The notes: generated by a model from the letters alone, not told the origin. 64,000 nucleotides of DNA from Candidatus Rokuibacteriota bacterium (GCA_016200085.1 JACQFL010000050.1:115088-179087), one strand, 5' to 3'; positions 11,274-23,196 are shown, counted from the stretch's first letter. Translations and numbers: made by a program.

Positions 11274-11955
11274 GGCTCCTCCTGGCCCGTCACGGTCAGT
11301 CCGTCTGGAACGAGGTCCGCCGGTTCCAGGGGACGACCGACGTCGGCCTCTCGCCCCTCGGCCGCGCCCAGGCGGCGGCCCTCGGCTCCGCGCTGCGCGG
11401 ACGGCCGATCGTCGCCGCGTACGTCAGCCCGATGCGGCGGGCCCGCGAGACGGCCGAGATCGCGCTGGCCGGCGCCGCCAGGGCGATGCGGAGCGATCCG
11501 CGCGCGCTCCCGGTGCCCAGCGTGCCGCTGATCGCCGTCGAGGAGCTGCGCGAGCTGTCGCTCGGCGAGTGGGAGGGCTACACGGTCGACGAGATCCGCG
11601 CCCGCGACGGCGATCCCTATCAGGCCTGGCTGCGGGCGCCGCTCGACTGCCCGCCGCCGGGCGCCGAGCCCCTGGACGCCGTGTGCGAGCGGGTGGTGCG
11701 CGCCATCGACCGGATCGTCGCGACCCACCACCGCGGGGAGGACGTGCTGGTCGTCGCCCACGGCGGGGTCATCAGCACCTACGTCTGCCACCTGCTCGGC
11801 TGCTCGTTCAACGCGCTCTGGCGCTTCCGCGTGGACAACGCCTCGCTGACCGTCGTGCGCCCGCCGCGGCTCAGCACCATCAACGCCACCGACCATCTCA
11901 CCGACGGGCTCCGCTCGCCGATCTGGCAGCGGCCCGCCGCGGCCTCGAGCGCGCC

Positions 11956-11959
<4 letters not shown>
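11270..11959 (+). CDS. histidine phosphatase family protein (phosphoglycerate mutase-like)
   Basis: VRLLLARHGQSVWNEVRRFQGTTDVGLSPLGRAQA... carries the RHG catalytic motif. The GTG start overlaps the gltX stop. The 635-aa ORF-track entry 10052..11959 is an artefactual N-terminal extension. Confidence 0.8.
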
Positions 11960-13942
<1,983 letters not shown>

Positions 13943-19627: not shown

Positions 19628-20280
19628 GCGAGCGCCGCTTCCTGCTCGTCGGGCTCACCGGGGGGATCGCGACGGGGAAGAGCACGGTCTCCGCGCTGTT
19701 CCGCGCCCTCGGGGCGGAGATCATCGATGCCGACCAGCTGGCGCGGGAGGTCGTCGAGCCCGGGGAGCCGGCCTCGCGCGACATCGTCGAGGAGTTCGGT
19801 CGCGCCGTGCTCCAGCCCGACGGGCGGCTCGACCGCAAGGCGCTCGGGGCGATCGTGTTCGCCGATCCCGCCCGGCGCAAGCGGCTCGAGGCCATCACGC
19901 ACCCGCGCATCCGCGAGCGGTTCCTGACCCGGCTGGCCGAGCTGGAATCGCGCGACTTCAGCGGGCTCGTGTTCTTCGACGCCCCGGTGATGATCGAGAG
20001 CGGCAACTACCGCACCATGGACCGCCTCGTGGTGGTGATGACCGACGCGCCCACCCAGGAGAGCCGGTTCATCGCCCGCGACGGCGGCACCCGGGAGGAC
20101 GCGCTCCGGCGGATCGCGAGCCAGATGCCGGTCGCCGAGAAGGCCAAGCTCGCCGACTACGTGATCGACAACTCGGGGGACCGCGCCGCCACGGAGGTCG
20201 AGGTGCGCCGCGTGCATGCCGCCCTCCTCGCCGATCTCGCCGCGCGCGGGACGGCCCAGCCGCGGGGTGGCGGCGACTAA
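19624..20280 (+). CDS. coaE: dephospho-CoA kinase
   Basis: VSERRFLLVGLTGGIATGKSTV (P-loop). GTG overlaps the polA stop. Confidence 0.85.
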   Translation: MSERRFLLVGLTGGIATGKSTVSALFRALGAEIIDADQLAREVVEPGEPASRDIVEEFGRAVLQPDGRLDRKALGAIVFADPARRKRLEAITHPRIRERFLTRLAELESRDFSGLVFFDAPVMIESGNYRTMDRLVVVMTDAPTQESRFIARDGGTREDALRRIASQMPVAEKAKLADYVIDNSGDRAATEVEVRRVHAALLADLAARGTAQPRGGGD

Positions 20281-21052
20281 GCGCCGCGCGCTCGGCCAGC
20301 ACTTCCTGCGCGATGCCGGCATCGCGCGGGCCATCGTCGATCTCGTCGCGCCCGGACCGGCGGACCTCGTGCTGGAGATCGGGCCCGGGGAGGGGGCGCT
20401 GACCGCCGAGCTGGCGCGACGGGCGGGCCGTGTCGTGGCCCTCGAGGTGGACCGCGCCCTGGTGTCCTCGCTGCGGACCCGCTTCCCGGGGGTCGAGATC
20501 GTCGAAGCGGACGCGCGCACTTGGGACTACGGGCGGCTCGCGGCGCCGGCGGGGGGCCGCACCCTGGTCGTCGGCAACCTGCCCTACAGCGTCGGCACCG
20601 CCATCCTGACCGCGCTGGTGCGTGCCCGCGGCGCGATCTCCGCCATGGCGCTCATGCTCCAGCGCGAGGTCGCCGAGCGGGTCGCCGCGCCCCCGGGCAG
20701 CCGCGTCTACGGCAGCCTGTCCGTCCTGACCCAGGTCTACTGCGACGTGCGGCTGGCCCTGCGCGTGCCCGCGGGCGCCTTCCGCCCCCCGCCCAAGGTC
20801 GAGTCCGCGGTGCTCCACCTCGTCGTGCTGCCCCAGCCACGCGTGCCGTTGCGGGACGAGCGGCGCTTCGCCACGGTCGTCCGCGCCGCCTTCGCCCAGC
20901 GGCGGAAGATGCTCGCCAACGCCCTGGCCGCGGGCCTGGGCGTGTCCGTGGCCACGGCGCGCCGGAGCGCCGAGGACGCCGGGATCGACCCTGCCCGCCG
21001 CGCGGAGACCCTGTCGATCCATGAGTTCGCCGCGCTCGTCGATCGGCTATGA
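20267..21052 (+). CDS. rsmA: 16S rRNA (adenine1518-N6/adenine1519-N6)-dimethyltransferase
   Basis: KRRALGQHFLRDAGIARAIVDLV...LEIGPGEGALT...VGNLPYSV are KsgA motifs. An alternative upstream ATG at 20216 overlaps coaE more extensively. Confidence 0.85.
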   Translation: MAATKRRALGQHFLRDAGIARAIVDLVAPGPADLVLEIGPGEGALTAELARRAGRVVALEVDRALVSSLRTRFPGVEIVEADARTWDYGRLAAPAGGRTLVVGNLPYSVGTAILTALVRARGAISAMALMLQREVAERVAAPPGSRVYGSLSVLTQVYCDVRLALRVPAGAFRPPPKVESAVLHLVVLPQPRVPLRDERRFATVVRAAFAQRRKMLANALAAGLGVSVATARRSAEDAGIDPARRAETLSIHEFAALVDRL

Positions 21053-21179
21053 TGCGAGGCGTGACGTCGTGACGCGAACGCGGGTCGTCATCGCGCTCGC
21101 TCTCGCTGGGCCCTCGCCGCGCTCGCGACCCACCGTCTCCGGCAACGCCCGCCCGCCATCGCCGCCGCTGGTCCCGTGG

Positions 21180-21470
21180 CCGCCCGCGCGGCGGCCCCGT
21201 CGCCCATCATTCCGGAGGTCGCGTCGCCGCGCGCCAGCCGTGTCGATCTGCGGCGCGGCGAGAGCCTGGTGACGGCGCTCGTGCGGGCGGGGGTCGAGCC
21301 CAGGATCGGCCAGGAGTTGCGGGCCGCGCTCGCTCAAGAAGAGCTTTCTCGAGTCGCCGCTGCAGTTCACGCGGATCACATCGGGCTTCACGTACGCGGG
21401 CCCGCATCCGATCCTCGGCGGCCTGCACCCGCATCTGGCGATCGACAGCGGTCCGATGTCGGTCACCAAT
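21180..21470 (+). pseudogene. degraded M23-peptidase gene relic (OapA/LysM-like fragment plus M23 active-site fragment, in different frames)
   Basis: Frame A: RVDLRRGESLVTALVRAGVEPRIGQELRAAL (OapA/LysM-like). Frame B: FTRITSGFTYAGPHPILGGLHPHLAIDSGP, matching the M23 consensus RITSGFG.R.HPILG...H.GID. There is no intact ORF. Confidence 0.4.
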
Positions 21471-21537
21471 CCGCGAAACTTCGGGGGCGCCCCGGCCGGG
21501 TGCTACGATGAGTTTTGCTTCTGTGAAAGGAGCTTCG

Positions 21538-23196
21538 GTGGAGCCAGCCGTCCGCCTGATCCCCCTCGGTGGCCTCGGCGAGATCGGGCTCAACATGATG
21601 CTGCTCGAATCGGGCGACGACGTCATCGCCATCGATTGCGGGCTCATGTTCCCGGACCCCGACGAGATGCCGGGCATCGATCGGGTCATCCCGGACTTCT
21701 CCTACGCGCTCGCCAAGCGCAACGGCTTTCGCGCCGTCGTGCTCACCCACGGCCACGAGGATCACATCGGCGCGCTCCCGTATCTGCTCGCCCGGGCCGG
21801 GGTGCCCGTCTACGGCACGCCGCTCACCCTGGCCCTGGTCGCCGAGCGGCTGCGCGAGCATGGCCTGCTCGAGAACGCGGACCTGAGATCCATGCGGGCG
21901 CGCGAGGCCTTCTCGGCGGGGCCGTTCCGGCTGGAGCCCATCAGGGTCACTCACTCGATCGCCGACGGTATCGGTCTGGCCGTGCACACCCCGGCGGGCA
22001 CGATCGTGCACACGGGCGACTTCAAGCTGGATCCGAGCCCGCTCGACGGCAAGACGCCCGACTACCGCCGCTTCGCCGAGCTGGGCGAGCAGGGCGTGCT
22101 CGCGCTCCTGTCCGACTCGACCAACGTCGACCGGCCGGGCCATACCCGCTCGGAGATCGAAGTGGGCGAGGCCTTGCGCCCGCGCTTCGCCCGCGCGCGC
22201 GGCCGCGTGGTGGTGGCGACGTTCGCCTCGCACATCCACCGCATCCAGCAAGTCCTGTCGCTCGCCGCCGAGTTCGGGCGGCACGTGGCGCTGCTCGGCA
22301 TGAGCATGCAGAAGAACGTCGCCATCGCCGCCCAGCTCGACTACCTGCGTGTGCCCGACGACATCCTGCTCCCGCTCGAGGAGCTGGTGGCGCTGCCGCC
22401 CGAGCGGCAGGCGATCCTCTCCACGGGCAGCCAGGGGGAGCACCACTCCGCCCTCGCCCTGATGGCCGCGGGCGAGCACCGGTCGGTGCAGATCGCCGCC
22501 GGCGACCTGGTGATCATCTCGGCGCGCGTGATTCCCGGCCACGAGCGCACCATCGGCCGCGTGGTCAACGCCCTGCTGCGGCTGGGCGCCGAGGTCCTCT
22601 ACGACGACAACGCGTTCGTGCACGTCTCCGGCCACGCGAGCCAGGAAGACCTCAAGCTCATGCTGAATCTCACGCGCCCGCGGTACTTCGTGCCCGTCCA
22701 CGGCGAGTACCGCCACTTGCTGGGCCACGCGCGCCTGGCGGCTTCGGTCGGACTGCCCGAGGAGCGGATCTTCCTCGTCGAGGACGGCATGGGGATCGAG
22801 CTCTCGGCGACGGCCGCGCGGACCGTCGGGCGCTACCCGGCCGGACGCGTGCTCGTGGACGGCAAGGGGATCGGCGACGTCGGCGCCGTGGTCCTGCGCG
22901 ACCGGCAGATCCTGGCCGAGGATGGCCTGGTGTGCGTCTCGCTGGCGCTCGACCGCGAGGGCAAGGTGGTCGCGGGCCCGGAGATCGCCTCGCGCGGCTT
23001 CGTCTACGTCAAGGAGAGCGAGGCGCTGCTCGACGAGCTGCGCGCGGCCGTGCTCGACGCGCTCGCCCGGCGCGAGCCCGCCCTGCCGTCCGACCGCGAG
23101 ACCATCGGCGCGCTCGTGCGCGCGCGCGTGCGCCAGTTCATCAACCAGCGCTTCGAGCGCAAGCCCATCGTGCTGCCCATCATCCTGGAGGTCTGA
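21538..23196 (+). CDS. rnj: ribonuclease J
   Basis: VEPAVRLIPLGGLGEIGLNMMLLESGDDVIAIDCG...VLTHGHEDHIGALPYL shows an MBL fold plus beta-CASP. The GTG at 21538 is preceded by RBS AAAGGAG. The ORF-track ATG at 21508 is less likely. Confidence 0.85.
   Translation: MEPAVRLIPLGGLGEIGLNMMLLESGDDVIAIDCGLMFPDPDEMPGIDRVIPDFSYALAKRNGFRAVVLTHGHEDHIGALPYLLARAGVPVYGTPLTLALVAERLREHGLLENADLRSMRAREAFSAGPFRLEPIRVTHSIADGIGLAVHTPAGTIVHTGDFKLDPSPLDGKTPDYRRFAELGEQGVLALLSDSTNVDRPGHTRSEIEVGEALRPRFARARGRVVVATFASHIHRIQQVLSLAAEFGRHVALLGMSMQKNVAIAAQLDYLRVPDDILLPLEELVALPPERQAILSTGSQGEHHSALALMAAGEHRSVQIAAGDLVIISARVIPGHERTIGRVVNALLRLGAEVLYDDNAFVHVSGHASQEDLKLMLNLTRPRYFVPVHGEYRHLLGHARLAASVGLPEERIFLVEDGMGIELSATAARTVGRYPAGRVLVDGKGIGDVGAVVLRDRQILAEDGLVCVSLALDREGKVVAGPEIASRGFVYVKESEALLDELRAAVLDALARREPALPSDRETIGALVRARVRQFINQRFERKPIVLPIILEV

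Follow-up and report, generated by a model that had tools for sequence, protein, structure and literature searches.

LysM-M23 peptidoglycan DD-endopeptidases, such as ShyC and ShyA of Vibrio cholerae and MepM (YebA) of E. coli, are built alike, with a hydrophobic anchor at the N terminus followed by a LysM-like domain and an M23 domain, and the intact Rokubacteria proteins described below have this plan as well (PMC6381278). Structures have been solved for several relatives, among them Csd3 (HdpA) of Helicobacter pylori (PDB 4rny) and proteins of the NMB0315/NGO1686 type (3slu and 6muk). In this study, a 64-kb stretch of Rokubacteria DNA was analysed; the whole stretch is called the window, and the features of the locus are on its plus strand unless stated otherwise. 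The Rokubacteria are a phylum of free-living soil bacteria with large genomes. We propose that positions 21069-21474 of the window, between rsmA and rnj, are a non-functional remnant of a membrane-anchored peptidoglycan endopeptidase gene, which was inactivated in place and then shrunk by deletions (probability about 0.9). Homology, synteny and the lesions confirmed the original prediction of an M23 cell-wall hydrolase gene that had decayed in place, in that the spacer appears to hold the broken remains, about one third, of an M23 cell-wall peptidase gene which is intact at the same spot in relatives. Judged by its orthologues, the ancestral gene would have been of the LysM-like/Csd3_N2/M23 type and would have resembled ShyC, MepM, Csd3 and NMB0315. 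In contrast to ShyC and MepM, the window copy is without a catalytic domain and cannot be an enzyme.

Intact orthologues at the same position in relatives

Two intact genes flank the spacer, as had been predicted. The upstream neighbour at 20216-21052 is rsmA, which encodes the 16S rRNA dimethyladenosine transferase (Pfam RrnaAD, E 1e-57), and the downstream neighbour at 21538-23196 (listed as an ORF from ATG 21508) is rnj, which encodes RNase J with the Pfam domains beta-CASP, RMMBL and RNase_J_C. The RNase J of the window is 100% identical to P0001, an NCBI protein from a metagenome-assembled genome labelled 'Candidatus Rokubacteria bacterium'. Relatives were gathered by RNase J protein scans of genomes and metagenomes, together with look-ups of closer RNase J relatives. 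It had been suggested that the syntenic region of relatives may retain an intact gene, and an intact M23 gene of 415-460 aa was indeed found at this position, ahead of rnj, in 19 related Rokubacteria/Methylomirabilota loci (L001-L004, L082, L084-L094 and L163-L165). In three of them (L087, L089 and L090), the M23 gene is upstream of rnj, but the contig stops before rsmA. The RsmA of the window shows 69-79% amino acid identity to the RsmA of relatives with an intact M23 gene next door. In L163, the order polA-coaE-rsmA-M23-rnj-ftsK is the same as the order around the window spacer; the RNase J of this locus, as well as those of L164 and L165, is 82% identical to that of the window. The order rsmA-M23-rnj was observed in every relative that has an RNase J at least 74% identical and enough upstream sequence to include rsmA.

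A deeper clade (L005, L006, L097 and L098), with RNase J 67-69% identical to that of the window, has rsmA adjoining rnj without an M23 gene, with spacers of 118-178 nt; the gene may have been either gained by the ancestor of the clade that has M23 or lost in the deeper clade. The closest relative found was L161 (RNase J 87%). Since its DNA upstream of rnj is only 430 nt long and is unrelated to the relic, L161 cannot date the loss. In L003, the rsmA gene at 3707-4305 matches the RsmA of the window at residues 21-123 and again at 191-275; between these two pieces, approximately 67 residues are missing and the frame changes. This would be either a second decaying gene or an assembly error.

The intact orthologues were compared with protein families and with solved structures. 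Peptidase_M23 (PF01551) was matched in L001-L004 at 96-108 bits (cut-off 28.7), with E values from 3e-31 to 2e-27, and the M23 assignment of L163-L165 was precomputed. Csd3_N2 was matched in the scan of L001-L004, above the Pfam cut-off only in L001, and NMB0315_dom_I gave a weak match below the cut-off in two of the four (L002 and L003). The layout of NMB0315_dom_I (weak), Csd3_N2 and Peptidase_M23 agrees with the three domains of Csd3 and NMB0315, which are the best solved relatives of L163. The E values of L163 were 3e-43 for 6muk, 1e-42 for 3slu (NMB0315) and 1e-28 for 4rny (Csd3), and ShyA (6ue4) was also among the PDB relatives of the intact gene. Against NCBIfam, L163 and L001 aligned nearly full length with ShyC (E 1e-59 to 5e-65), ShyA (E 6e-37 to 2e-43) and MepM (E 1e-34 to 4e-40). 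Since the scores are far under the equivalog cut-offs (about 200-220 bits against 700, and 120-138 bits against 341), these proteins are distant family members and not orthologues of ShyC, ShyA or MepM. OapA (PF04225) had no match in the relic, nor in the intact orthologues at E ≤ 0.01. Hence, of the OapA/LysM-like N-terminal domain originally predicted, the OapA assignment did not hold, the only match being the weak one to NMB0315_dom_I, and the idea of a LysM-like domain ahead of the M23 domain was right in spirit (PMC6381278).

One motif distinguishes most Rokubacteria orthologues from the solved enzymes. NMB0315, Csd3 and ShyA read GPHLHY/F. The motif was located in 18 intact orthologues, of which 16 have GPHLDY, and HLH is kept only in L001 (2149-3411) and L091. 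The GPHLDY loci span L002-L004, L082-L094, L163 and L164 (for example, L163 2586-3860), and their HxxxD and YxHLS motifs are intact. The replaced residue is the second His of HxH, which we take to be the zinc ligand known from LytM and Csd3, so that an Asp would replace a zinc-binding His. The GPHLDY orthologues may be either active enzymes with an Asp ligand or regulators.

Anatomy and lesions of the remnant

The relic spans about 21069-21474, and about 406 of approximately 1,270 nt (about 32% of the gene) are left. In blastn, colinear homology to the intact gene of L163 was observed from about 21071 to 21474, and six colinear segments connected the window with L163 from the 3' end of rsmA through rnj. 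When four intact orthologues were searched against the whole 64-kb window by tblastn, they matched 21327 to 21452 or 21476, with E values from 6e-17 to 2e-15. The amino acid identity was 81% over 42 aa at 21327-21452 (E 6e-17) and 62% over 42 aa at 21212-21337 when compared with L001 (E 2e-8). At the nucleotide level, 21330-21446 was 87% identical to L003 over 117 nt (E 6e-38), and 21252-21335 was 73% identical to L001 2351-2434 (E 7e-9). The frame-corrected translation of the relic also matched the NCBIfam ShyC model NF053824 (E 8e-6) at profile positions 260-300. Matches of tblastn and of a profile to M23 proteins in this interval, which the original prediction implied, were thus obtained (E 6e-17 and 2e-8, and E 8e-6 for ShyC).

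In the rest of the window, the best other tblastn matches had E values of at least 0.002 and were of low complexity, and no second M23 gene was found within the 64 kb by tblastn. A candidate at 12126-12455 was rejected, as it reached only E 0.1 in tblastn and is inside a 664-aa ORF (11569-13563) which, judged by eye, would be a membrane transporter of the multi-pass type rather than a peptidase. Pfam searches of the raw frames and of the frame-corrected translation at E ≤ 10 returned 0 matches to the relic, PF01551 included. Because PF01551 fits the orthologues only from HLAID (HxxxD) onward, this null result is expected and does not count against homology; the relic keeps only the first few of the 96 PF01551 model positions.

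The retained portions are the first third to half of domain I, the last 15 or so residues of domain 2 and the first 15 or so of the M23 domain. The original prediction had placed the relic at 21180-21470 and had described two protein-like stretches in different frames. Both stretches are real: RVDLRRGESLVTALVRAGVEPRIGQELRAAL (RVDLRRGE…RAAL) is encoded by 21239-21331 in the frame of 21032, and FTRITSGFTYAGPHPILGGLHPHLAIDSGPMSV (FTRITSGF…PMSV) is encoded by 21366-21464 in the frame of 21030. The relic is present in the predicted interval, but its limits are different, as the homology reaches left to about 21069. Three features were added by the present analysis, namely an internal deletion of about 480 nt, an N-terminal membrane-anchor region at 21069-21235 and a frameshift at about 21111.

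The first part of the relic (21069-21111, frame of 21030) consists of the start region and the membrane-anchor helix, V-TRTRVVIALALAG, which was placed against MRKRVVAVALACAALLAG of L163 in the protein alignment. In blastn, 21071-21127 matched L163 2585-2645 with 72% identity (E 0.003), and the match begins at the ATG of the L163 gene. This match is weak alone, but is supported by its colinearity with the other segments. The ATG start of the orthologues corresponds to an ACG at 21072-21074, with a GTG immediately before it at 21069. A frameshift near 21070, with a start at the ATGATG at 21049 which overlaps the rsmA stop codon as in L001, was considered and dropped, since the alignments with L163 and 16 orthologues put the conserved start Met at 21072. 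A 1-nt deletion within GGGCCC at about 21108-21115, observed as a single-base gap relative to L163 after about 21111 in blastn, shifts the frame from that of 21030 to that of 21032, in which the helix and linker resume as ALAALATHRLRQRPPAIAAAGPV, against LLAGLAVELPRRFARQAPPPAIPAGPV in L163. The exact position of the frameshift is uncertain. Since 21069-21235 is only weakly similar to the orthologues (blastn E 0.003-0.03), this position and the change of the start codon are less certain.

The second part (21112-21334, frame of 21032) contains a linker rich in Pro and Ala and, after it, the N-terminal half of the LysM-like domain I (…SRVDLRRGESLVTALVRAGVEPRIGQELRAALA), and the weak NMB0315_dom_I matches of L002 and L003 (E 3e-5 to 1e-4) are in the corresponding region. 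It ends at the junction of the first internal deletion (21326-21344), where about 480 nt were lost out of frame. The lost stretch corresponds to about aa 96-253 of L001, which comprise the remainder of domain I and almost the whole of Csd3_N2. The junction GCGCTCGCT, or more broadly CGCTCGCTCAAGAAGAGC, is like both flanks of the deleted stretch in the intact genes. In L001, the left flank (GCGCTGGCT) and the right flank (GCGCTCGCT) are 482 nt apart, while each of the two flanks of L163 can be aligned with the 18 nt of CGCTCGCTCAAGAAGAGC at window positions 21327-21344. The blastn matches from the two sides have window positions 21326-21335 in common. The length of the repeat depends on the reference, being 9 nt with L001 and up to 18 nt, imperfect, with L163.

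The third part (21327-21446, frame of 21030) covers the C-terminal end of domain 2 together with the first M23 motif (RSLKKSFLESPLQFTRITSGFTYAGPHPILGGLHPHLAID), and has no indel relative to the orthologues. The HxxxD motif, which is the first zinc-ligand motif, is present in the relic as HLAID at 21432-21446 and aligns with HLAID or HLAVD of the orthologues and with HYGVD of Csd3. A 3-aa insertion had been predicted in this active-site stretch. There is none, as the orthologues read FTRITSGFTYARPHPILGGVRPHLAIDY with identical spacing and YTRISSPFSYGRFHPVLKVRRPHYGVDY of Csd3 aligns with it without gaps, NMB0315 being one residue shorter. The real degradation of the stretch consists of the point changes K to E, R to G and Y to S, and of small indels after HLAID. 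These indels are in the fourth part (21447-21474), a degraded tail recognized from DNA and protein alignments, in which SGPMSVTNPR stands against YGAPVGTPVR of the orthologues; in a pairwise DNA alignment with L003 5330-5360, they are about -3, +2 and -1 nt.

The M23 homology ends at about 21474, at the junction of the second deletion (TCCGCG, 21470-21475). Lost through this deletion were the catalytic core of the M23 domain from about aa 300 onward, the stop codon and the intergenic DNA beyond it, in all at least 450 nt. The junction resembles GTCCGCG in the P-V-R-A codons of the orthologues, and it also resembles the CCGCG ahead of the rnj promoter-like element in many relatives. The deletion ends about 63 nt upstream of the rnj GTG at 21538, just before that conserved element, and the truncation is therefore not caused by the start of rnj, as had been supposed. 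The absence of the C-terminal HxH part was correctly predicted. Neither the catalytic His of YxHLS nor the HxH motif has a counterpart in the window, the homology stopping at about aa 300, and in the orthologues YNHLS and GPHL(D/H)Y are 45-100 residues beyond the end of the relic. Since these catalytic motifs are gone, the relic cannot encode an active M23 enzyme.

The rnj leader and the right-hand boundary

A conserved upstream element of rnj, which is outside the dead gene, was identified at 21475-21537 in an alignment of 25 Rokubacteria rnj leaders. In the window, it consists of GAAACTTCGG at 21475-21484, TG-n-TACGAT at 21501-21509, which is like an extended -10 element, and the ribosome-binding site GAAAGGAG at 21525-21532. 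The pattern in the window and 24 other loci is GAAAyTTCGG, about 16-17 nt, TGnTACGAT, about 15 nt, GAAAGGAG, 5-7 nt and GTG. The element has a conserved upstream box, which is unusual, instead of a TTGACA-like -35, and the deeper clade (L005, L006, L097 and L098) is without the GAAAGGAG-GTG part. The segment 21475-21509 may be the promoter of rnj, followed by a short leader. A strict scan of 20950-21650 for sigma-70 promoters and intrinsic terminators made no calls, and the promoter-like reading is therefore drawn from conservation only. Because GAAAGGAG followed by GTG is conserved in relatives, the true start of rnj is likely GTG 21538 (552 aa) and not ATG 21508, where both the listed ORF and the 562-aa P0001 begin.

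Homology to the rnj leaders resumes at 21473-21476 (L001, L004, L081 and L161), whatever lies upstream. The DNA upstream of this boundary is M23 intergenic DNA in L001 and L004, ABC permease genes in L081, hairpin-rich unrelated DNA in L161 and a TonB-dependent receptor gene in L162, and in three relatives (L081, L161 and L162) synteny breaks at the same nucleotide as the end of the relic. Since L161 has unrelated DNA upstream of the rnj element, the 3' lesion may have been a rearrangement of greater complexity than one deletion. Between the M23 stop codon and the rnj start, the 19 relatives have from 85 to 2,710 nt, and the cargo of this gap is unrelated between relatives. It includes a PemK/MazF toxin, a UDG-family protein and a PIN protein in L001, a trypsin-like protease in L082, a histidine kinase in L085, an RHH protein in L090 and a TonB-dependent receptor in L165 and L162; the variable-gap loci are L001, L082, L085, L087, L088, L090, L094 and L165, and also L081, L161 and L162.

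One explanation of this variability is that the site just upstream of the rnj element is a lineage-wide indel hot spot, and that the catalytic half of the M23 gene was lost as collateral damage. We regard this reading, under which the loss would not be due to random erosion, as unlikely. The sharp boundary could be set by selection on the promoter or by a recombination or integration site. In a repeat search of the spacer, only short GC-rich chance repeats and no mobile-element-like end were observed. Elsewhere, GC-rich palindromic repeats are directly upstream of the rnj element in L161 (1-120; GGGCCCCGGCTTTGCCGGGGGTC / GAGTGCCCGGCTTTGCCGGGCACTC) and in L087 (about 2400-2540; repeated GGGGGAACCCTGC(C/G)AGGGTTCCCC), and these units resemble REP-like intergenic hairpin elements.

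Selection on the remnant and the course of its decay

For the core at 21327-21452, which at 42 codons is a small sample, the window was compared codon by codon with 17 orthologues. On average, 8.6 of the 42 residues (minimum 7) were different between the window and an orthologue, and 3.4 between two orthologues. At codon positions 1 and 2, there were 10.8 differences between the window and the orthologues and 4.3 among the orthologues, an excess of about 2.5 times, whereas the third-position differences were similar, with 13.8 and 12.9, respectively. When the differences at positions 1+2 are divided by those at position 3, the result is 0.78 for the window against the orthologues and 0.33 among the orthologues. 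Four nucleotide positions that are invariant in the 17 orthologues were altered in the window, and all of them are at codon position 1 or 2. In the protein alignment, the changes D to E in RRGD, K to E, R to G and Y to S are at residues which are invariant in 16 orthologues. Purifying selection on the remnant core was relaxed.

These data also bear on the possibility that the gene is intact in the organism and that the short spacer is a misassembly or collapse of the metagenomic contig. The window is known from one metagenome-assembled genome, and no second copy of the exact locus was found to compare it with. However, the spacer has five or more independent lesions, which are not all of one kind (the start codon, the 1-nt frameshift, two large deletions and the small indels), and an assembler would not create a substitution pattern such as the changes at invariant residues and the excess at codon positions 1 and 2. 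The GC content around the site (66-80%) is continuous with that of the flanks. An assembly artefact is thus very improbable.

There is a similarly slight chance that the remnant has been kept for a new role, either as a short membrane peptide or as a transcribed regulatory leader for rnj. The spacer contains ORFs of 83 and 111 aa, for which the candidates are GTG 21069 to TGA 21272 and the 111-aa ORF at 21176-21511, which has an ATGA overlap with ATG 21508; moreover, the neighbouring genes are all on the same strand, which would make read-through from rsmA plausible. At 70-80% GC, however, long ORFs are usual in all six frames, and the opposite strand of this interval has ORFs of 140 and 160 aa. 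Neither of the two spacer ORFs contains a complete domain, and the likely start of rnj is GTG 21538 rather than the overlapping ATG. Rfam gave no match at permissive thresholds in 20900-21700, and the scan described above called no terminator or promoter. The remnant is common to no relative, the DNA of L161, L081 and L162 being unrelated up to the rnj element, and conservation therefore does not favour a new role. Least probable of all is that rsmA and rnj were at first separated by a short spacer only, and that recombination or horizontal transfer brought an M23 fragment into it: the deeper clade does have rsmA directly beside rnj without M23 and relatives show gene flux in the M23-rnj gap, but the relatives with RNase J at least 74% identical that reach rsmA all hold the intact gene in the same position and orientation, the remnant is colinear with that gene from the start-codon region beside rsmA onward, and its third-position divergence equals the level between orthologues, as vertical descent predicts.

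Under the preferred reading of inactivation in place followed by deletions, the ancestor would have had the gene order polA-coaE-rsmA-M23-rnj-ftsK that is still found in relatives. The middle of the gene would have been lost when about 480 nt were deleted between direct repeats, short and imperfect, and a second deletion would have taken the catalytic core together with the stop codon and the DNA downstream, which is variable. The 1-nt frameshift, the altered start codon, the small indels and the substitutions at invariant residues would complete the damage. The decay would be bounded where function begins, by the rsmA stop codon on the left and by the rnj promoter-like element and ribosome-binding site on the right. 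The deletions may have arisen by slippage or by a microhomology mechanism. Other endopeptidases elsewhere in the genome would presumably make the loss tolerable, and such a loss is plausible because LysM/M23 endopeptidases are commonly functionally redundant (PMC6381278).

The 486-nt spacer between rsmA and rnj should be annotated as the pseudogene of an M23 endopeptidase, and none of its chance ORFs should be called. The locus is a small, clean example of a free-living, GC-rich bacterium discarding a dispensable cell-wall hydrolase through deletions between short repeats, which are bounded by the stop codon of one neighbour and the promoter-like element of the next gene. Although this endopeptidase is conserved in one place in the gene order through much of the phylum, it is not indispensable. 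The relic opens no long-standing question and is one more example of a known phenomenon.

The relic is an ordinary, well delimited bacterial pseudogene, and its history is one of ordinary deletional gene decay. Removal of bacterial pseudogenes through deletional bias, the usual fate of dead genes in bacteria, is described in PMC2817411, PMC2916853 and PMC6054270. The features which the relic has in common with such pseudogenes are multiple inactivating lesions, large deletions with short direct repeats, erosion that halts at functional neighbours and a raised level of amino-acid-changing substitutions. Compared with eroded bacterial pseudogenes, the relic does not differ in kind, and its host is free-living rather than host-restricted.
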